From: Staphylothermus marinus F1
GTDB lineage: Archaea; Thermoproteota; Thermoprotei_A; Sulfolobales; Desulfurococcaceae
Assembly: GCF_000015945.1 (NCBI RefSeq)
Contig: NC_009033.1
Coordinates: 1,320,001 to 1,352,000, forward strand
Direction: 5' to 3'
Length of the DNA: 32,000 nt
Shown here in pieces: positions 125 to 32,000 of the stretch. Each line of letters opens with the position of its first letter. Position 1 is the stretch's first letter. The notes beneath the pieces are model-generated. The model searched no databases. It worked only from the letters and a program-made list of their open reading frames with translations, and was not told where the DNA came from. The position numbers and the translations under genes were made by a program.

Positions 125-1849
125 ATGAATAAGAAATACGTGATGATAGCTATAATAACTATGTTGTTAATCCAATTAATAACACCTATTACAACAATTA
201 CTTATTCACAGCAACCAACGTATCTAAGGTTTCTATTTCTATATGTGCCGGGATTCTCTCTCGAAAAAGCTGTTAATGTTTCTTCATTGAAGTACTTGGA
301 GAATGCCACTTTTAAAGCATACATAAATCCAATACCACCATATACGTTATCATATAATGAAATAGTTCTAGTTAATAATTCATGGGATCTATCAAAAGCT
401 ATTGTGTTAGATAACAATACAGCATTACTTCCAAACAATACCTATACTCAACTATATAAGCTAGTACCTAAACAAGTATTAACCAATTTATGGGGAACAC
501 TTGATACAATGTTTCTAGGCTTATCCTCCATTGATCCACGAGTTCATAGTAGAACAATGAATCCATATTTTAACGAGACAAATAAAATAATAGAGCCTGC
601 AATCTTCATCATACCAATTAATGGAACAACTATATGGGACCAATTAAATACAACAATAAAATTATCAGTGTCAAGCCAATACTTCGTCTTATCTATTGAA
701 AACTATGTGGATGGAATAAAGTTTAGTAAGGAAACAAATGTTACTCCAATATTAAAGTTTAATATAACTAATGAAAAATTATCAGTCGAGCCTGGAATAT
801 ATTATCTTAGATTTAGAGTTTTAAAAATGAACAGTACACATGTTATACTATTTACTCCTGGAACAAGAAAAGCCGATCAATGGTTCTCAGAATACTTTGA
901 GAAGTTTGATAGACCTGTTGTTCCGAGAATACCGTTTAAATATACTAGGTATATGGATGAAGATGATCTAGAATGGCTTGTAAATGAAGTAATCAACTTC
1001 TATAAGTCCATGTTAACAACAGCATATAAATATAGATCGGCGACAATAAACTTTGTAGAATATCCCCTAATCTATGATTTATGGACTGGATATATACACG
1101 GCTATATTAATTGGGAACAGCTAAGTAAACTTGAGGAACTAGCATATAATGGTTTGTCCGAAATAATAAATACTACGAAGAACATGATCAATGAAAACAT
1201 TACCACAATAATATATTCTCCCTTCACAATCAATAACCACGAAGAGAACTTATCAATACAGGGACTAAGATATGTTGAGCCAGGACTCTATTTTGTTGAA
1301 GGAGATGAAACCAGTGTTTTATCGGAGCTAATTAGTAGAAACATATCTTATACAACAATGTCCTTCGGCGATAAAAAACTAGTATTGATTAATAACCCGG
1401 GATACTATGGTGTCAGCAAAGGAGAACTAATAGTATATGGTAAAGAATTGAGAAAAATACTATCAACATTTACATTGCAACCAACTAATGTAGCATCATT
1501 TATATTATCACTAGTTAGAGGATACGGTGTTGGATTATCTAATGCTATAAATGAGATCTCCTTTATCAATCTAAAAATACAGAGCTTAAACGATGAAATA
1601 AGTAATTTACAGAAAAAGTTGAGCACACTTAACCAGACATTATTCAATGTTAACCAATCTCTTGGGAAATACAGAGCAGAAAATATCAACCTCACAGATC
1701 AAATTAGCAGTTATAAAGCAAAGATTAATGAGTATAGACAGAGAGAACAACAAGCACTACTATATGCAACTATAGGAAGCATAAGTGTTCTAGTTATAGT
1801 TATATTGCTATATATTATCGCGACAAGAGGGATCACTAAGAAGCGCTAA
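125..1849 (+). CDS. Extracellular, C-terminally membrane-anchored glycoprotein with coiled-coil stalk (function unknown)
   Basis: 574-aa ORF. It has an N-terminal hydrophobic signal-like segment (IAIITMLLIQLITPI) and many N-x-S/T sequons. A heptad-like coiled-coil stretch (INLKIQSLNDEISNLQKKLSTLNQ...KINEYRQREQQ) is followed by a C-terminal TM helix (ALLYATIGSISVLVIVILLYIIA) and a basic tail. No family recognised. Confidence 0.6.
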   Translation: MNKKYVMIAIITMLLIQLITPITTITYSQQPTYLRFLFLYVPGFSLEKAVNVSSLKYLENATFKAYINPIPPYTLSYNEIVLVNNSWDLSKAIVLDNNTALLPNNTYTQLYKLVPKQVLTNLWGTLDTMFLGLSSIDPRVHSRTMNPYFNETNKIIEPAIFIIPINGTTIWDQLNTTIKLSVSSQYFVLSIENYVDGIKFSKETNVTPILKFNITNEKLSVEPGIYYLRFRVLKMNSTHVILFTPGTRKADQWFSEYFEKFDRPVVPRIPFKYTRYMDEDDLEWLVNEVINFYKSMLTTAYKYRSATINFVEYPLIYDLWTGYIHGYINWEQLSKLEELAYNGLSEIINTTKNMINENITTIIYSPFTINNHEENLSIQGLRYVEPGLYFVEGDETSVLSELISRNISYTTMSFGDKKLVLINNPGYYGVSKGELIVYGKELRKILSTFTLQPTNVASFILSLVRGYGVGLSNAINEISFINLKIQSLNDEISNLQKKLSTLNQTLFNVNQSLGKYRAENINLTDQISSYKAKINEYRQREQQALLYATIGSISVLVIVILLYIIATRGITKKR

Positions 1850-9323: not shown

Positions 9324-9929
9324 ATGAAACATGGAATTAGCTACTCCAGGCTTATGTTAGAAAAGATTTCAAACATAACGAATGAGTTGGAGATACGCGG
9401 TATAAGATCGGTTGTGCTAAATGATCTTGCTATATCTTTATATGGAATAATAAAACCAGTTGATGAGATCAGAATACTTGTTGAGGGTAAAGAACTTGAT
9501 ACTATAGCTTATGTTGTAGCTAAAGAATTGGGAATGAGTATTTATCAAAGAGATATTTATAATTCTCTTAGAACACTTGGTAAAGCTGTGATTAATCCAG
9601 TCCTTATACCATTGACTATTTTAGAAATTACTCGGAGCCCTATAGATACCGGAATATTAGTCAACAGGATTAGATTTACCTACAAAGAACTATATATCTA
9701 TGTTCCCCAAATAGAATACTTAATCTGTAAGCTTTTAACATACAATGCTTATCCATATAATATATATGCTTATGCTTTAATGATTGTTCACAAGGAAATC
9801 ATTGATCGAGGCGTAATTAAAAGATTATTAAAAGATACTAATATAGATCTAGATAAAATTATGGAAAATATTTCGAGAATAAAATCCATAATAGAATTAT
9901 TTCCAGAACTAAGTAACGAGAATACCTGA
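9324..9929 (+). CDS. Hypothetical protein, possibly a degenerate nucleotidyltransferase fold
   Basis: 201-aa ORF with coding-like composition. The segment VVLNDLAISLYGIIKPVDEIRILVEG loosely resembles the G-x-x-A...yG...D-x-D strand of minimal or AbiEii-like nucleotidyltransferases, but the second Asp is absent. No confident family call. Confidence 0.4.
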   Translation: MKHGISYSRLMLEKISNITNELEIRGIRSVVLNDLAISLYGIIKPVDEIRILVEGKELDTIAYVVAKELGMSIYQRDIYNSLRTLGKAVINPVLIPLTILEITRSPIDTGILVNRIRFTYKELYIYVPQIEYLICKLLTYNAYPYNIYAYALMIVHKEIIDRGVIKRLLKDTNIDLDKIMENISRIKSIIELFPELSNENT

Positions 9930-10012
9930 AGAATAAACTAAATAAAACACTTTGCTTTATGCTTCTAATATGAGATATGTAATAATTATAGAGAGTAGGG
10001 GGTTAATCCAAA

Positions 10013-11155
10013 ATGGCAACTAGTGAGAGATTATTTGAGAAATTAAAGCCGTTATCACCTGGACAAGAGGAAATGAAGAAAGCGTTTATGAATAAAAACT
10101 ATGAGATCATAGGATTATTTGGGCCTACGGGGTCGGGTAAAAGCTTGTTCAGTGTAGTGTATAGTATCGATGCTGTATTGAATGGTGAGTACTCAAGATT
10201 CATATTGTCTAGGCCAATAGTTGATGTTGTAACAGGTAAAGAATTAACAACTGCAGATATTGGGCAACAATACTATGAATTAGCAACGAGTTATCTAAAA
10301 GACATATTGACAGGATTCGTTGAATGGGGGATCGTTAAGAACCTGCTTGATTCGGGAAAAATAGTTGTAGCAGACACACATTATCTGAGAGGCAGAACGT
10401 TTGATGATTCAATAATATTTCTAGACGATGCTCAGAGCATATCTCCTGAAAGCGCTGTCGAGATCATGATGAGGATTGGGCGGAACAGTAGATTTATCAT
10501 AGCTGGAGACCCTGTGTTTCAAAAACATCTATCGCAAAGTGATGGAGCATCGATGCTGAGAGAAATTCTTTTAGGAGAAGAAACTGCTAAAGTAATAGAT
10601 CTTGGATTAAAAGATATTGTTAGACCAGGTGCTAGGAGGGGGATTAGGCTCTTACTAGAAATAAGAATGAGGCGCAGATCTCTCAACGAAGCTGAGAAAC
10701 AAGTAATTGATTCAGCAAGGCTTCACGCTCCAGACGCTGATATAGTTACAGTTGTAGAATTTATTGATGAAAAGAAAACCTACAATATATTATCAGAAAA
10801 TGTTCCAGACGCACTAATAATTGTTAAGGAAGGCCATCTAGGAAGAATAATTGGTAGAGGAGGAGAGAGAATAGAAGCTATAGAAGCAGATACAGGATTA
10901 AAACTGAGAGCTGTAGAATTAACACTTGACTTTAAACCATTAATAAGAGCTATACATCCAGTAAGCTGGGTATACAAGTTTATAGCAGACGTTGATTTCG
11001 CAGGACCCGATCTAGCTGTGAAGGTAGAGACTGATGGATTCGGAGCATTCGTAGGCCAGAAAGGATTCCACGTGAAATTCCTAGATGCAGTAATGAGGAA
11101 GTTACTGGGTGTTGGCGTGAAAGCAAAGGAGATCGGTGGTAAACGGAGAAAATAA
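10013..11155 (+). CDS. PhoH-like ATPase fused to KH RNA-binding domains
   Basis: 380 aa. Walker A is GPTGSGKS and Walker B-like is IIFLDDAQ, with the PhoH-like IIAGDPVFQ. The C-terminal KH GxxG motifs are GRIIGRGGERIEAIE and GAFVGQKGFHVKFL. Confidence 0.75.
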   Translation: MATSERLFEKLKPLSPGQEEMKKAFMNKNYEIIGLFGPTGSGKSLFSVVYSIDAVLNGEYSRFILSRPIVDVVTGKELTTADIGQQYYELATSYLKDILTGFVEWGIVKNLLDSGKIVVADTHYLRGRTFDDSIIFLDDAQSISPESAVEIMMRIGRNSRFIIAGDPVFQKHLSQSDGASMLREILLGEETAKVIDLGLKDIVRPGARRGIRLLLEIRMRRRSLNEAEKQVIDSARLHAPDADIVTVVEFIDEKKTYNILSENVPDALIIVKEGHLGRIIGRGGERIEAIEADTGLKLRAVELTLDFKPLIRAIHPVSWVYKFIADVDFAGPDLAVKVETDGFGAFVGQKGFHVKFLDAVMRKLLGVGVKAKEIGGKRRK

Positions 11156-25811: not shown

Positions 25812-26549
25812 TTGAGTGATTATAGGCTCCAAGTAATTGATCTACATAAGATCTATAATAATAAAGTATATGCTGTTAAAGGAATAAGTTTCAATATTAA
25901 ACCAGGCGAAATATTTGGATTAATAGGTCCTAATGGAGCAGGAAAAACAACAACACTCCGAATAATAGCTGGCTTATTAAAACCTACAAGGGGAAAAGTA
26001 TTATTTGAAGGAGTAAACCTGCATGAAAACATAGATATAGCTAAGAAAAATATAAGCTATCTTCCCGAAGAAGCAGGGGTTTATTCTAGGTTAACAGGTT
26101 ATGAACACTTAAAACTATATGCTATGCTCTACGAAGTAGAAGACATAGAGGAAATGATCAAATATGGTGCTGAACTTAGTGGTTTAGAAGATAAATTAAG
26201 AGAGAGAGCTGAAACATATAGTAAAGGTATGAAGCGCAGACTACTGCTAGCTCTAGTATTGATGAGGAAACCGGCTATGGCCATACTTGATGAGCCAACT
26301 AGTGGATTAGACGTCTACGCATCTGTAAAAGTTAGGCAGATGATAAAGGAATATGTTAAAGAAACAAATTCATCGGTATTGCTCAGTAGTCATAATATGT
26401 TAGAAGTTGAATACCTATGTGATAGAGTCGCATTTATTTATCAAGGCAAAATATTTGTTGAAGGAACACCGAAGGAGATAAAAGATCTATATGGTGCTGA
26501 TAACTTAGAAGAAGCATTCGTAAAAGCAGTAGAGGAAACCAGGAAATGA
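25812..26549 (+). CDS. ABC transporter ATP-binding protein (ABC-2 / NatA-like)
   Basis: Walker A is GPNGAGKTT, the signature is YSKGMKRRL, Walker B is MAILDEPTSGLD and the H-loop is SSHNM. TTG start. It overlaps the permease gene by 4 nt. Confidence 0.9.
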   Translation: MSDYRLQVIDLHKIYNNKVYAVKGISFNIKPGEIFGLIGPNGAGKTTTLRIIAGLLKPTRGKVLFEGVNLHENIDIAKKNISYLPEEAGVYSRLTGYEHLKLYAMLYEVEDIEEMIKYGAELSGLEDKLRERAETYSKGMKRRLLLALVLMRKPAMAILDEPTSGLDVYASVKVRQMIKEYVKETNSSVLLSSHNMLEVEYLCDRVAFIYQGKIFVEGTPKEIKDLYGADNLEEAFVKAVEETRK

Positions 26550-27808
26550 GGACCACATATTTTATAAGAGTACTTATGTGGAAAGAACTCACAGACCTAA
26601 TTAGGGATAGGAAAACATTGTTTACAAGCATACTTCTACCATTAATAATGCTTCCCCTAATCGGATTACTAGGCGTAGCACTAGTTACACAACAACCAGT
26701 TCTAATAGCAATAATTGATCTTGATAATTCGAGTTATCATAATGACTACTTAAATATAACATATAATTCATCATGGGTCGTCTCTAATCTAACCAATGTC
26801 TTATCTCGTTATGGATACAACTATACTATTTCCAGTAATGAAAGCATAGTTAAGAATCCAAAAATAGACTTAGCAGTTGTTATACCGGAGGGTTTCGCTA
26901 AAAACTCCACATTACTAAATACTACTGCTAGAATAATTATTTATAGGAAAGCAGGTGTTCAAGCAGCTGAGAGAGCTGAAGCAACTGTTAATGGTGTCAT
27001 ATATTATTTATCCATAAGGTTATCTGATGAAAAGATCAATTCATTGTCTAGAATACTAAATATTACAATTGTACCACAAGCTCTTAGAAACCCTATACAA
27101 ACCAGGACTGAAGTTGTCACAATAACCGGTGTTCCAGCACAACCAGGATTCGAATTAAAAGCTACCTTTGCAAGAATACTTGTTTTAGCCCTTAGCTTCG
27201 TGGTGACTCCAGCTGCATCATACGTTATAGATGGTATAGTTGGTGAGAGGGAGAGAAAAACCATGGAACTACTTATATCGAGCCCTGCCCCCCTTAATTC
27301 AATTATTTATTCTAAAATGATTGCTGCTACAATTCTTGGGTTAATAACGGCTGTTGCTGATGCTTTGGGATTAGTAGCTTATATGTTCTTATTGAGTATT
27401 GCTTCAGGAGTTGGTCTTGGCTTAATAGTTGATCCTATGCTTTTACTAATACATTCCATAACGGCTTTCTTCACAATATTAGCAACTATAACTATAGCAT
27501 TACCCTTCATTACTAGAACCAAGGGTATACGGAGTGCATCAAATATTGCTGGAATAGTGACAACTATTGGGATAGTATTCTTCTTTACAGGCTTCTTCGT
27601 AGACTATATAAGGCTTCCTTCAGAGATACTTTATCCATTATATATAGTTCCATATGTTCATAGCATACTAGTTATACAATCATATATGCTCGGATATGTT
27701 TTGAGATCAATTATTCATATAAGTGTATTAGCAATTGTTAGCATAGGATTACTAGTATTAGCTACAAAAACGATCAATACAGAAAAACTATTAATCGCTC
27801 AGTCCTAG
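26546..27808 (+). CDS. ABC-2 type permease (NatB-like) with large extracytoplasmic loop
   Basis: 420 aa. An N-terminal TM segment is followed by a ~180-aa sequon-rich loop and then about 5 C-terminal TM helices. It is translationally coupled to the ATPase. Confidence 0.7.
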   Translation: MRTTYFIRVLMWKELTDLIRDRKTLFTSILLPLIMLPLIGLLGVALVTQQPVLIAIIDLDNSSYHNDYLNITYNSSWVVSNLTNVLSRYGYNYTISSNESIVKNPKIDLAVVIPEGFAKNSTLLNTTARIIIYRKAGVQAAERAEATVNGVIYYLSIRLSDEKINSLSRILNITIVPQALRNPIQTRTEVVTITGVPAQPGFELKATFARILVLALSFVVTPAASYVIDGIVGERERKTMELLISSPAPLNSIIYSKMIAATILGLITAVADALGLVAYMFLLSIASGVGLGLIVDPMLLLIHSITAFFTILATITIALPFITRTKGIRSASNIAGIVTTIGIVFFFTGFFVDYIRLPSEILYPLYIVPYVHSILVIQSYMLGYVLRSIIHISVLAIVSIGLLVLATKTINTEKLLIAQS

Positions 27809-27818
27809 GATAAATAAG

Positions 27819-27882
27819 AAGATGATGAGCCCAGGCGAAGCAGAGCTTTTGAGGCTATGACGTATTCAGCCTTAACTGATCA
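27819..27882 (+). ncRNA. Box C/D sRNA (2'-O-methylation guide)
   Basis: The layout is AUGAUGA (27822-27828), a 12-nt guide (gcccaggcgaag), CAGA (27841-27844, D'), a linker, AUGACGU (27857-27863, C'), a 12-nt guide (attcagccttaa) and CUGA (27876-27879, D). The C-to-D span is 58 nt, the canonical archaeal geometry. Confidence 0.65.
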
Positions 27883-27978
27883 TACCTACACATAAGAATA
27901 AATTGATCCATATATCTATTCTGAGATAAAGATTTATACTTAAAAGATAAAGTATAAATTTTAAAAGGTGACTCTATA

Positions 27979-28479
27979 TTGAGTAGGAGGGCATTCTATA
28001 GAATAATACTTTATAGTGGCGAAAACGGAGAACTTGAACCAGTAAAAATTGCTCAACAATTAGGACTCCAATTAAACACTGTAAAGAAATACTTGAAAAC
28101 ACTTGAGAAGGAAGAACTAGTTAGAAGAATAGATGATAAAAGATATCAATTAACAAGTAAGGGGTTAAAACTCAAGAAAAGTATAGAGAGACTCAAAGAA
28201 ATAAAAACACCAGAACCATACATAATTACTAATCCATCAACAGGCGAGCCCCTCCAATTAACTGTTAGAGATTATAAACAATTATATGCTGTAATAGAGT
28301 ATGGTCTAGCTCCAAGAAATATTTTAGAAGAACACTTAAAGAGAGGATATTTCTTGGAATGGATAAAAAATGTTTTCAACGATGAATTCTTAGTTGAACT
28401 AATTAATGAAGGAAGGATAACAACAATAGATGATCTGAAAAACTATTTAAAAGAAATAATAGGTTTACTAACGAAATAG
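27979..28479 (+). CDS. Winged-HTH regulator with C-terminal domain shared with the downstream GH57 enzyme
   Basis: 166 aa. The N-terminal wHTH is LEPVKIAQQLGLQLNTVKKYLKTLEKEELVRR. The C-terminal ~70 aa align with the C-terminus of ORF 29989..31551 (HLKRGYFLEWIKNVF vs HLKRGDFQAWLRSIF). AGGTGA precedes the TTG start. Confidence 0.6.
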   Translation: MSRRAFYRIILYSGENGELEPVKIAQQLGLQLNTVKKYLKTLEKEELVRRIDDKRYQLTSKGLKLKKSIERLKEIKTPEPYIITNPSTGEPLQLTVRDYKQLYAVIEYGLAPRNILEEHLKRGYFLEWIKNVFNDEFLVELINEGRITTIDDLKNYLKEIIGLLTK

Positions 28480-28502
28480 AATCATATCGTTGATGTGAAA
28501 CA

Positions 28503-29945
28503 ATGATAAATCAAACAATCTTAGCAAGTAAGTTAGAAAAGTTTTTACCCAATATTAGATGGTGGCCTTGGAAAGGAGTCTCTAAAAGTATATTTTTTAA
28601 CTATTATAAAGAATGCGACGACATAATCTTATCCATTATAAAAGCTAACGAGCACGGGTTCTATTTGCCATTAAAAATTGCTGATACAAAACCTGATCTT
28701 CCAGCTAATAGATATTTTTTAATAAATAATAAGTATCTGTATGAAGCTGAGTTTTCGAGAGATTATATTGAGAAATTAAAGAAGATAGAGGATATTAGTA
28801 TTAGGGAATACGAAAAACTAGTAGGTAAAGTAACAAAGGCATACCCGCTCACACTAGATACAACCAATATAGTTGCTATACATGAATTAGAGTATGGAGA
28901 TAAAGTAGTAGTGAAGAGTTATAGACTTATCCCTAGAATCAATATGGAACCTTTAATTCTAATGAAACTAGCTGAGAAAAGATTCAAGAATATTCCGAAG
29001 CTTTATCAAGTCTTCATATTAAAGGATATAGTAGTATCTCTGGTAGTAGAGTATGTTAAAGGTATAGGAGATGGCGGTTATCCATTCTATATAGCTTATA
29101 AGAAACTTTTAGAATCAGGTAAAAGAAGAGAACCACTAGGGTACAGGCTTGGCTTAGCAAGTAAGCTCGGAATAATTATAGCGGATATGCATAAGAAGCT
29201 AAACGATAAATTCAGCACAGACTTTTTCGGCTTAGAAAAAATAAGTAATGAAGATATTGAAAGATGGATTAAAAGAATAGATTCGAGATATAAAGAAATA
29301 TTAAAGATACTAAGCGATTTAGAGAGCAAGGCTGATAAGAAACGCGATATTAGAAGATATAGTTTCTGGAGAGAAGTTCTCGAAGAAAAAGCCTACTCAA
29401 TAATTGAAGATGCTAAGACGCGTATGGAACTTTTCAGAGATAGTAATAAAGGGAGGATCCACCAAGATCTTCACTTAGCACAAATGATATATTCCGTGGA
29501 GAACGAAGACTTCATAATTACGGATTTCGAGGGAGAGCCTGGACGTAGCGATGATGAAAGAGTTGAGAAAGAACCGTTTCTCAGAGATATCGCCACTATG
29601 ATCCGTAGTTTCCAATATCTTGCCTTCATGACCTATTTAGAAGTTAAGGGTAAAAGTATAGAGCAAGTAGCTAAGAAGCTGTTGAGGAACGATGTTACTT
29701 GGGAATGGCGTATGAGACATAGTCTTAGCATGTTGTTATCATATTTAGCATCTACACAGAAACCCAATATTCACGGTATTAATACGCAGTTATTAATAGA
29801 ACAATACAATCAACTACTTATGCCTTGGCTTGTTGAGAGAGCGCTATATGAGATCATGTATGAAGCTATGTACAGGCCTGAATGGATACCTGTCCCATTG
29901 ATCGGCTTATTAAATCCAGCAATACCAACGTTGCCTCTCAAATAA
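28503..29945 (+). CDS. Maltokinase-like (Mak/Pep2, aminoglycoside-phosphotransferase fold) kinase
   Basis: 480 aa. The catalytic loop is RIHQDLHLAQMI and the Mg-binding motif is ITDFEGEPGR, matching the DLH...DFEGEP pattern of maltokinases. The substrate is not established. Confidence 0.6.
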   Translation: MINQTILASKLEKFLPNIRWWPWKGVSKSIFFNYYKECDDIILSIIKANEHGFYLPLKIADTKPDLPANRYFLINNKYLYEAEFSRDYIEKLKKIEDISIREYEKLVGKVTKAYPLTLDTTNIVAIHELEYGDKVVVKSYRLIPRINMEPLILMKLAEKRFKNIPKLYQVFILKDIVVSLVVEYVKGIGDGGYPFYIAYKKLLESGKRREPLGYRLGLASKLGIIIADMHKKLNDKFSTDFFGLEKISNEDIERWIKRIDSRYKEILKILSDLESKADKKRDIRRYSFWREVLEEKAYSIIEDAKTRMELFRDSNKGRIHQDLHLAQMIYSVENEDFIITDFEGEPGRSDDERVEKEPFLRDIATMIRSFQYLAFMTYLEVKGKSIEQVAKKLLRNDVTWEWRMRHSLSMLLSYLASTQKPNIHGINTQLLIEQYNQLLMPWLVERALYEIMYEAMYRPEWIPVPLIGLLNPAIPTLPLK

Positions 29946-29988
29946 CATATTATCTTAAAAAACAATATATTTCATTAGAAAATATTGA

Positions 29989-31551
29989 TTGGTGAAAGTT
30001 TTGAGCGATATTGTATTCATGTTTGAAGTGCATCAACCATATAGACTTGATAGAAACGCATATAATAAACTACTCGAAAAAGCTCTACGAGGAAGACTTG
30101 AGCCACATGATCTTGAAGACGCTATTTTCGATAATGGACTGAACAAATTAGTGATAGAAAGAGCTTCTACAAAATGCTATATTCCAGCAACTAAGATAAT
30201 ATTGGAAAACATAAAGAGATATGCTAATAGTAATAAACCATTTAAAGTCGCTTATTCTATTAGTGGTGTTTTCATAGAACAAGTTAGGATGTGGAAGCCT
30301 GAAGTAATAGATCTATTTATGGAGCTACGTGAAACAGGTATGGTGGAATTTGTTGAGCAAACATATTATCATAGCATGGCTGCTTTCATGCCTTTAAAGG
30401 ACTGGTCTGAGTTGAGAGAGCAAATACTTGAGCACCGCAGAGCTATGAAGGAATTATTCGATTATGAACCTAAGAGCATAGAGAATACTGAGTTCTCATA
30501 CAATAATGATATTGCTTGGCTATTCTCCTCTATGGGATACAAAGTTGTATTAACTGAGGGTGTTGACTGGGTTCTCGGATGGAGATCGCCTAATTATGTT
30601 TATAGAGCATATGGTAGTGATATCAAGGTTTTAACGAGAAATTATAGGTTAAGCGATGATATAGGTTATAGGTTTAGCGATAGAAACTGGGATCAATACC
30701 CATTAACAGCGGATAAGTATGCATCATGGCTAGCTGCAACTCCTGGAGACGTAATATTTCTCGCAATGGATTATGAGACTTTCGGAGAACATCACTGGCC
30801 AGAAACCGGGATACACGAGTTCTTGAGATGGTTGCCGGGAGAGATATTGAAGTATAATCACTTATATACTTCGACTCCAAGCGAGGTAGTAGATAAGTAT
30901 CCTGCTAGAGACATCATAGATGTTCCACCATGGAATACGATTAGTTGGGCTGATGAACGAGATCTAAGTGCTTGGCTAGGAAATCATATGCAGAGAAACG
31001 CGTTCAAGATCCTTGTTGATCTAAGGCCTTATGTGAAAGCATTAGATGAGCCCGAGATTACCCGTATCTGGAAGCTTCTAACAATAAGTGATCACCTATA
31101 CTATATTGCCACAAAGTTTGGAAGCATAGAACAAGTACACAGTTATTTCTCGCCATACAAGAACGCACCAGATGCTTATGCAATATATGTTCAAGCCCTA
31201 AGTCTTCTAGCAGGATTAATAGCGGAGAAAATAGAGCAGAAAAAATATGATGTGGCAAGAAAACTAGTACTACCAATGAATAAGGCGTTCTACTTCTATA
31301 AACCAACAGGAGAATATACAGGATATAGTGCAACCAATATAAAGGAATTCCTAGAAATAATTAGTAAAGCCCCAGCAGAATCAATACTATATCATTTAAA
31401 AAGAGGAGATTTCCAAGCATGGCTAAGAAGCATATTCGGTTTAGACGAAATAGCTGACGAACTAGACAAGATATCTTCTCAACCATTATCAGCTGAGGAA
31501 GCTCGGAAAGCCGTCTCAGATATAATAAGAAAATTTCTGAGCAGTACATAA
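29989..31551 (+). CDS. Glycoside hydrolase family 57 alpha-glucan-active enzyme with extra C-terminal domain
   Basis: 520 aa. The GH57 conserved regions are readable: I FEVHQPYR, II GMVEFVEQ, III IENTEF, IV MDYETFGEHHW, V ISDHLYY. The C-terminal ~70 aa are homologous to the C-terminus of the wHTH protein. Confidence 0.8.
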   Translation: MVKVLSDIVFMFEVHQPYRLDRNAYNKLLEKALRGRLEPHDLEDAIFDNGLNKLVIERASTKCYIPATKIILENIKRYANSNKPFKVAYSISGVFIEQVRMWKPEVIDLFMELRETGMVEFVEQTYYHSMAAFMPLKDWSELREQILEHRRAMKELFDYEPKSIENTEFSYNNDIAWLFSSMGYKVVLTEGVDWVLGWRSPNYVYRAYGSDIKVLTRNYRLSDDIGYRFSDRNWDQYPLTADKYASWLAATPGDVIFLAMDYETFGEHHWPETGIHEFLRWLPGEILKYNHLYTSTPSEVVDKYPARDIIDVPPWNTISWADERDLSAWLGNHMQRNAFKILVDLRPYVKALDEPEITRIWKLLTISDHLYYIATKFGSIEQVHSYFSPYKNAPDAYAIYVQALSLLAGLIAEKIEQKKYDVARKLVLPMNKAFYFYKPTGEYTGYSATNIKEFLEIISKAPAESILYHLKRGDFQAWLRSIFGLDEIADELDKISSQPLSAEEARKAVSDIIRKFLSST

Positions 31552-31637: not shown

Positions 31638-32000
31638 ATGTATCTCCGTAAATCCCTATCAGTCATATTGCTGGTACTTATAGCTGTGTTCTTCATGGCT
31701 GATCAAAATCTTTTACCGCCTAATTACCAGTTTATTATGAAGGAATTCGGCATATCTGAAGTTCAAATAGGGCTTGTTTCATCAATATTTGTCGCTACTA
31801 GTGCGGTCATTACTATACTGTGGGGTTTTCTAGCTGATGTGGTTTCGAGGAAGAAATTATTGCTTATAGGAGTGTATTTAGGGGAAATCCCGTGTTTTCT
31901 CACAGCATTCGTAACTAACTATTGGCAATTATTGTTTCTAAGACTCCTAACAGGTATAGGTATAGGATCAATAATACCTATAGCTTATACACTAATAGCT
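31638..32000 (+). CDS. MFS transporter, 5' partial (runs off the window end)
   Basis: This is my own translation from ATG 31638: MYLRKSLSVILLVLIAVFFMADQNLLPPNYQFIMKEFGISEVQIGLVSSIFVATSAVITILWGFLADVVSRKKLLLIGVYLGE...LLTGIGIGSIIPIAYTLIA. It shows typical MFS TM1-TM4 and the D-x-x-S-R-K-K loop. It is open to the window end, so it is absent from the ORF track. Confidence 0.6.
   Translation, partial: MYLRKSLSVILLVLIAVFFMADQNLLPPNYQFIMKEFGISEVQIGLVSSIFVATSAVITILWGFLADVVSRKKLLLIGVYLGEIPCFLTAFVTNYWQLLFLRLLTGIGIGSIIPIAYTLIA

Follow-up and report, generated by a model that had tools for sequence, protein, structure and literature searches.

The three genes described here lie towards one end of a 32,000-nucleotide (nt) window of the Staphylothermus marinus F1 genome. 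All coordinates refer to this window, and the other loci that were compared are numbered L001 to L019. The genes encode, in order, a winged helix-turn-helix (wHTH) regulator, a sugar kinase of the Mak family and an enzyme of glycoside hydrolase family 57 (GH57). By sequence comparison, the C-termini of the regulator and of the enzyme were confirmed as homologous, each carrying a single copy of a repeat unit that occurs twice in the protein OrfY. The genes, the two copies of the domain and the gene that follows are listed below; amino acids are abbreviated aa.

27979-28479 (+): wHTH regulator gene, 166 aa, TTG start, with a GGTGA Shine-Dalgarno-like motif 8 nt upstream
28213-28470 (+): C-terminal OrfY-repeat-like domain of the wHTH protein, residues 79-164; a beta-hairpin and five helices in the AlphaFold2 (AF2) model, predicted local distance difference test (pLDDT) score 88.8
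28503-29945 (+): Mak-family (maltokinase-like) sugar kinase gene, 480 aa
30001-31551 (+): GH57 enzyme gene, 516 aa counted from the TTG at 30001; the mechanical open reading frame (ORF) runs from 29989
31279-31533 (+): C-terminal OrfY-repeat (half-DUF5752) domain of the GH57 enzyme, residues 431-515 in 520-aa numbering
31638-32000 (+): 5' part of a major facilitator superfamily (MFS) transporter gene, cut by the window end (PF07690, E 3.6e-21; Sugar_tr, E 1.8e-10)

The initial annotation, made from the letters of the window and its ORFs, had described three co-directional, closely spaced ORFs followed by an MFS transporter, and the ORF list and the PF07690 match agreed with this arrangement. 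The gap between the wHTH and kinase genes is 23 nt, and that between the kinase and GH57 genes is 43 nt, or 55 nt with the TTG start at 30001. The latter start was favored on the basis of the N-termini of homologues (M[TA]D[IV]VF), a GGTGA at 29990-29994 and a database entry of 516 aa. A GGTGA/GTGA Shine-Dalgarno-like motif precedes each of the three genes. Together, the short gaps and these motifs are compatible with an operon, though they do not prove one.

A C-terminal domain common to regulator and enzyme

Residues 88-141 of the wHTH protein were aligned by BLASTP with residues 440-492 of the GH57 protein at 35% identity (E 7e-5). A Smith-Waterman alignment of the two tails scored 70, vs. 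25.6 ± 4.7 for shuffled sequences, and none of 2000 shuffles reached the observed score. For profile comparison in hhalign, a 35-sequence alignment of wHTH tails (A4) was set against seven GH57 tails taken from syntenic loci (A6), which gave a probability of 97.7% and E 1.6e-12 over 83 aligned columns. The hhalign score was 67.1, vs. 11.0 ± 2.1 (maximum 17.8) in 60 column-shuffled controls and 16.2 in a reversed control. When all six frames of the window were scanned, each tail profile recovered solely the other protein, at 23.6 bits (runner-up 4.4) and 15.2 bits (runner-up 3.9). The two groups were also bridged by P0038, a distant member of the wHTH family, the tail of which is 34% identical to the GH57 tail over 94 aa, scores 60.5 bits with the hidden Markov model of the GH57 tails, and is nearer to the GH57 tail than to the wHTH tail of the window. 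BLASTP, the shuffles, hhalign with its controls and the reciprocal, window-unique profile matches thus bore out the proposal that the two proteins share a C-terminal domain. The homology stood, while the proposed length of ~65 aa was replaced by ~85 aa, spanning the residues listed above for each protein.

That a domain of unknown function is catalogued at GH57 C-termini had been supposed in the initial annotation, and it was identified here as PF19027 (DUF5752), which the GH57 tail matches at 39.3 bits (cut-off 23; E 5.6e-10). The match places GH57 residues 415-513 on profile positions 99-207 of 208, the second half of the model. Among PDB sequences, the GH57 tail matches entry 4CSO (E 3.9e-7 as a single sequence, 4.9e-10 as a profile), with two regions of the chain aligned. 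The protein of this entry is OrfY, which we take to originate from Thermoproteus tenax, and the entry was deposited under the title 'OrfY protein, transcription factor'. With the 4CSO fragment as query, two metagenomic OrfY-like genes were retrieved, each of 221 aa and each matching PF19027 at E ~1e-63 over positions 3-207. The two halves of these proteins (repeat 1 and repeat 2) match one another at 25% identity over 81 aa (E 8e-7); OrfY is therefore a tandem duplication of a unit of ~85 aa. Both repeats are matched by the GH57 tail. Each of the two window proteins carries one repeat, vs. the two tandem repeats that fill the ~208-position DUF5752 model.

In hhalign, the GH57 tails matched repeat 1 with a probability of 94% and repeat 2 with 98.5% (E 2.6e-15). 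The wHTH tails, compared with the same OrfY profiles of 2-3 sequences, matched repeat 1 with 70% (E 4e-5) and repeat 2 with 5%. The wHTH tails have a W-x5-GD-E-LA motif in common with repeat 1, and the GH57 tails carry the repeat-2-like motif W-L-x3-F-GL-x-E-x-AD. Over the 35 wHTH tails, DUF5752 was the only Pfam family to recur, being found below threshold in 5 of them (best E 0.032). A recent duplication within the operon was considered as the origin of the two copies and was ruled out: the tails share ~35% identity, and both OrfY repeat 2 and P0038 are nearer to the GH57 tail than its neighbor in the operon is.

A single repeat also forms standalone DUF5752 proteins (P0054, P0055 and P0056). 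The gene for P0054 (109 aa) lies 25 nt 3' of a co-directional gene for an AsnC/Lrp-type HTH regulator, at 7454-8330 in L016 and 6061-6937 in L017, which again brings the repeat together with a DNA-binding protein. The OrfY-like genes overlap the start of a gene for the trehalose synthase TreT by 13 nt (L018 1682-7864, L019 3694-5564; PF21269, E 3e-57). In L018, MSC, GT and TPSP genes also adjoin the OrfY-like gene; a trehalose operon made up of such genes has been described in Thermoproteus tenax (PMC3634074). No published function for OrfY or DUF5752 was found in the literature searched.

The N-terminal part of the regulator matches PF14947 (HTH_45) over residues 10-76 (E 1e-10, 41.9 bits, cut-off 25.5), and the protein is 88% identical to one from Staphylothermus hellenicus. 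A full-length AF2 model (pLDDT 87.3) was searched with Foldseek and matched the wHTH domains of Sso10a, DtxR and IdeR (1r7j and 4hw0 among the entries); wHTH matches alone were returned, and these masked the tail. The profile of the tails was run with HMMER in an exhaustive search of 1.84 billion representatives, and 34 matches were obtained, of which 32 were kept after P0006 and P0037 were dropped as low-complexity repeat artefacts. Two of the 32 are short fragments; all full-length matches (159-206 aa) consist of an N-terminal wHTH domain and the tail. By these matches, the tail defines an archaeal wHTH-plus-repeat family of ~32 clusters. When the same tail profile was searched against PDB sequences, designed helical bundles were returned at E > 0.02 and were discarded as noise. 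At one locus of the family, L011 (4680-6446), the wHTH-repeat gene P0029 is followed by a gene for a 164-aa protein (no Pfam match) and by a family 2 glycosyltransferase gene, a possibly carbohydrate-related setting.

It might be argued that the resemblance of the two tails is fortuitous or compositional, both being helical, Lys/Glu-rich segments of hyperthermophile proteins that have no domain in common. Pfam does not find DUF5752 in the wHTH protein, and Foldseek gave no common fold, both of which count in its favor. Against it stand the pairwise score that 0 of 2000 shuffles attained, the hhalign score of 67 vs. a control maximum of 17.8, the reciprocal matches unique in the window, the bridging of both groups by P0038, and the standing of DUF5752 as the sole recurring Pfam family among the wHTH tails. 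The shuffle, hhalign and window-scan results effectively refute chance similarity, and it was accorded next to no probability.

Kinase, GH57 enzyme and genomic context

The middle gene had been annotated as a maltokinase-like kinase, and its product matches the maltokinase model TIGR02457 over residues 129-470 (E 2.4e-38), at 132.1 bits, which is below the equivalog cut-off of 375. Maltokinases in the PDB (4u94, 5jy7 and 4o7o) were matched at E 4.5e-17 to 1.6e-14. In the alignment with 4u94, the kinase segments RIHQDLHLAQ and DFEGEPG fall on RVHGDLHLGQ and DFEGEPG, and the catalytic loop HxDLHxxQ, the Mg-binding DFEGEPG and the C-terminal YEAxYRPxWxPxP region are all kept. Judged from these matches and motifs, the gene encodes a Mak-family sugar kinase with its catalytic motifs intact. 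Since the glucosamine kinase model NF041273 is matched as well (E 9e-14), the substrate could be another sugar. Pfam gave no match on three orthologues of the kinase. The ORFs of the window include neither TreS nor GlgE, and neither was seen in the syntenic loci L001 and L003; for the window, this absence had been reported in the initial annotation and holds on annotation of its ORFs. Among archaea, a published survey lists complete Mak-GlgE pathways for no more than Picrophilus torridus and a handful of others, Acidiplasma included (PMC6355812). Because such pathways are rare in that survey, a Mak homologue beside a GH57 gene in Desulfurococcales is unexplained.

The third gene encodes a protein that matches PF03065 (E 3.1e-83) and corresponds to ABN70480.1/A3DPC0 of S. 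marinus F1 (516 aa). Its five conserved regions (EVHQP, GMVEFV, ENTEFS, AMDYETFGEH and LTISDHLYY) are identical to those given for A3DPC0 (PMC6037648, Table S1). The catalytic Glu (in ENTEFS) and Asp (in AMDYETFGEH) align with E123 and D214 of the 4-alpha-glucanotransferase of T. litoralis; with both residues in place, a catalytically dead 'amylase-like' GH57 protein was ruled out. The characterised S. marinus amylopullulanase 7E1Y was likewise ruled out as this protein, as there is no sequence match. In the survey by the Janecek group, A3DPC0 is filed under 'AAMY-like proteins', a group without a characterised member, and exceptions that keep both catalytic residues are acknowledged there; the DUF5752 tail, the neighboring regulator and the kinase are not discussed (PMC6037648). 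Relatives of the enzyme measure ~457 aa in Pyrobaculum and 512-522 aa in Desulfurococcales and Thermofilum, and these protein lengths alone suggest that the tail is lineage-specific.

Synteny in related genomes was examined, and the wHTH-kinase-GH57 trio was found together in six other loci (L001, L003, L006, L007, L008 and L009), which belong to Staphylothermus or to Desulfurococcales metagenome-assembled genomes and all to one Desulfurococcales clade. Across these loci, identity to the window proteins is 73-90% for the whole GH57 protein, 49-82% for its tail, 39-77% for the kinase and 43-71% for the wHTH protein. A genome scan with a 9-sequence wHTH alignment returned four loci alone, all from close relatives.

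The genes that follow the trio differ among loci. In L001 (11710-16531) and L003 (11753-16522) they encode a GH57 protein of 4-alpha-glucanotransferase type (642-644 aa) and a glycogen synthase of glycosyltransferase family 5 (GT5), and further downstream lie a PqqD-like gene of 127-128 aa and then a gene of 283 aa. A second GH57 gene lies directly 3' of the trio in L006-L008, and a C11 peptidase gene lies 3' of it in L009. The MFS transporter gene in that position is peculiar to the present genome, the sister loci carrying other genes there. The downstream glucanotransferase and glycogen synthase support a role of the trio in alpha-glucan metabolism. Of the alpha-glucan theme drawn in the initial annotation, this part was upheld by L001 and L003, and the GlgE and TreS partners that it brought to mind were not found.

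Immediately upstream of the wHTH gene, and co-directional with it, the window carries a pair of ABC-2-type transporter genes (ATPase and permease, 25812-27808, +). Counterparts of the pair occur in L001, L002, L003 and L009 (in L009 the permease alone was checked); because these upstream genes are also conserved, the genomes with the trio are broadly colinear. The remaining genes of the window are housekeeping genes (TiaS, deoxyhypusine synthase, PhoH, a class II aminoacyl-tRNA synthetase and coenzyme A biosynthesis), and no TreS, GlgE or TreT gene is present among the ORFs of the 32 kb. The window is AT-rich (GC ~35%). Rfam (gathering thresholds) and tRNA scans of it were both empty. An ORF of 574 aa at 125-1849 (+) gave no Pfam match at E ≤ 1e-5.

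One further feature was identified between the permease and wHTH genes:

27929-27962 (unstranded): inverted repeat ATTTATAC-N12-GTATAAAT, with 13-nt arms that are 92% complementary

The repeat overlaps TATA-like boxes and lies ~20-50 nt 5' of the wHTH start. The pattern, which falls at 27932-27959, has one perfect instance in the window; comparison of the three closest loci (the window, L003 and L002) shows conserved arms around a variable spacer. The repeat is a reasonable candidate for the operator of a dimeric wHTH protein. The same intergenic region holds a conserved block, aaGATGATGAgcccaggcgaagCAGAgcttttgaggcTATGACGtattcagccttaaCTGAtc, at 27819-27881 (+), which is laid out as C box, guide, D', C', guide and D box, like an archaeal C/D-box small RNA. 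The block is conserved in L002, L003, L006 and L007. It gave weak sub-threshold matches in Rfam to the C/D-box families sR5 and sR19 and none at the gathering score, and it occupies part of the region earlier taken as the wHTH promoter.

Readings of function and comparison with known systems

The reading preferred here, held tentatively and with somewhat less than even confidence, is that the OrfY repeat serves for pairing, so that the regulator dimerises through it and is perhaps coupled to the enzyme. Since OrfY links two repeats in one chain, proteins with a single repeat probably pair. In the case of the regulator, pairing of the tails would give a wHTH dimer that binds the inverted repeat lying across the TATA region of its own gene, and a dimer bound to its own promoter would auto-repress the operon. 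In the case of the GH57 enzyme, the repeat would let two copies of the enzyme pair, or one copy pair with the regulator. Such a mixed pair, having one wHTH domain, would make expression of the operon depend on how much enzyme is present or on its state. Intracellular alpha-glucan, maltose or maltodextrin metabolism would be the pathway served.

A more elaborate version may be built on the resemblance of the wHTH tail to repeat 1 and of the GH57 tail to repeat 2, which hints that the two could rebuild an OrfY-like unit. OrfY would then be split into a heterodimer in which the GH57 enzyme titrates its regulator by dimer exchange, as a trigger enzyme. A sugar-1-phosphate donor made by the Mak-family kinase would be used by the GH57 protein, acting as a GlgE analogue, in a maltose-1-phosphate route of Crenarchaeota that does not involve GlgE. 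Taken jointly, these two proposals were considered quite improbable.

Several results weigh against the pairing-module reading. The Pfam model of DUF5752 found nothing in the wHTH tail at E ≤ 1, and the HMMER profile of the wHTH tails did not reach 4CSO among the PDB sequences. When the AF2 model of the wHTH tail was run against the PDB in Foldseek, nothing was returned at E < 1 and 4CSO was not listed, a failure that could be due to model error, intertwined repeats or low sensitivity. Because HMMER and Pfam miss it, the link from the wHTH tail to OrfY is largely transitive via the GH57 tail, and the assignment of the tails to repeat 1 and repeat 2 is built on profiles of just 2-3 OrfY sequences. 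Since the upstream ABC-2 and ThiN genes are likewise shared within the single clade to which every syntenic locus belongs, recent common ancestry may account in part for the synteny. In L009, an opposite-strand gene at 9730-10563 (-), encoding 277 aa with a weak LolA-like match only, splits the kinase gene from the GH57 gene, which must therefore have its own promoter there. The distant wHTH-repeat genes (L004, L011, L014 and L015) have unrelated neighbors and no GH57 or kinase gene, so that a GH57 partner is not generally needed by proteins of this kind. The inverted repeat is itself composed of TATA-like sequence within AT-rich DNA, and in other clades different TATA-like palindromes are found at other positions.

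Two other roles for the domain were weighed. The repeat may be a small-molecule sensor, both tails binding the same metabolite and the regulator and enzyme making no contact; maltose, maltose-1-phosphate, trehalose or a glucose phosphate would then act as a switch on DNA binding by the regulator and as an allosteric effector of the GH57 enzyme. The repeat is found next to alpha-glucoside enzymes from more than one family (TreT in L018 and L019, GH57 here), and polar or aromatic positions are conserved in all three groups, namely the His in YHL/EHL, an invariant Trp and the Arg/Lys that follows it. TrmB offers a precedent, and the wHTH protein gives a weak match to the TrmB HTH domain. A sensor of alpha-glucosides is at variance with the distant wHTH-repeat genes, which stand in contexts without carbohydrate genes, and the PDB-sequence and Foldseek searches revealed no likeness to a known ligand-binding fold. 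A unit of ~85 aa that is mostly helical and duplicated in OrfY fits pairing at least equally. The sensor was on balance judged somewhat unlikely.

Alternatively, the domain may be a generic structural or oligomerisation appendage that regulator and enzyme recruited independently and through which they do not communicate; its occurrence in two products of the operon would then carry no functional meaning. The tails are ~35% identical and each is nearer to other members of the family than to its neighbor in the operon, wHTH-repeat proteins are widespread without GH57, and the synteny is drawn from a single clade, as independent recruitment would have it. The wHTH-repeat and GH57-repeat genes nevertheless stay paired at wHTH identities as low as 43%, with different downstream neighbors from locus to locus, and the two tails, both of them under constraint, are the sole copies of the domain in the 32 kb; an appendage of this sort was regarded as unlikely.

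Of the elements described here, the DUF5752 family and the 4CSO structure are already known. Three points that follow from the sequence comparisons appear to be undescribed: that DUF5752 is a duplicated unit of ~85 aa, that one divergent copy of the unit, missed by Pfam, is present in a wHTH family of some size, and that such a regulator is encoded together with a unit-bearing GH57 enzyme and a Mak-family kinase. DUF5752/OrfY, with a structure and without a function, hereby gains a testable setting in which a regulator and an enzyme share the unit beside a Mak-family kinase. If enzyme and regulator do pair, the resulting feedback would be of a kind unusual for gene regulation in archaea. The uncharacterised GH57 clade with its catalytic dyad intact, together with an archaeal Mak homologue without GlgE, provides candidates for an undescribed step of glycogen or maltose metabolism in Crenarchaeota.

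The locus may be compared with five known systems. The GH57 enzyme resembles the 'alpha-amylase-like' group of Janecek, in which A3DPC0 is listed beside relatives of 512-522 aa from Desulfurococcus, Thermosphaera, Thermogladius and Thermofilum, and it differs from typical members in having both catalytic residues (PMC6037648). The kinase resembles Mak/Pep2 of the TreS-Mak-GlgE pathway in its conserved C-lobe and in catalytic and Mg-binding motifs that are nearly identical, whereas its partner is a GH57 protein and that of the pathway is the GH13 enzyme GlgE.

The regulator is like Sso10a and other HTH_45 proteins in its PF14947 match and in the Foldseek alignment to Sso10a 1r7j, with a template modelling (TM) score of 0.64 on the target; in the NCBIfam Sso10a model, however, it scores 33.5 vs. 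a cut-off of 60. Sso10a dimerises via a C-terminal coiled coil, and the position of that coiled coil is held in the window protein by the OrfY-type repeat. Archaeal sugar regulators of the TrmB type consist of a wHTH domain and a C-terminal sugar-binding domain and control maltodextrin and trehalose genes. The window protein shares with them a small size, a wHTH domain followed by a C-terminal domain that does not bind DNA, a context of alpha-glucan genes and a likely autoregulatory site over the TATA region. Its match to the TrmB HTH domain PF01978 reaches 18.9 bits vs. a cut-off of 25.6 (E 0.0014); its tail is unrelated to the TrmB sugar-binding domain, and no TrmB C-terminal domain was found in it by Pfam. 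OrfY itself has two repeats per chain and neither a wHTH nor a catalytic domain, whereas the repeats of the window are single and fused to such domains. The likeness to OrfY extends to gene context, in that OrfY-like genes adjoin the alpha-glucoside-forming TreT, just as the repeat genes of the window adjoin alpha-glucan genes.

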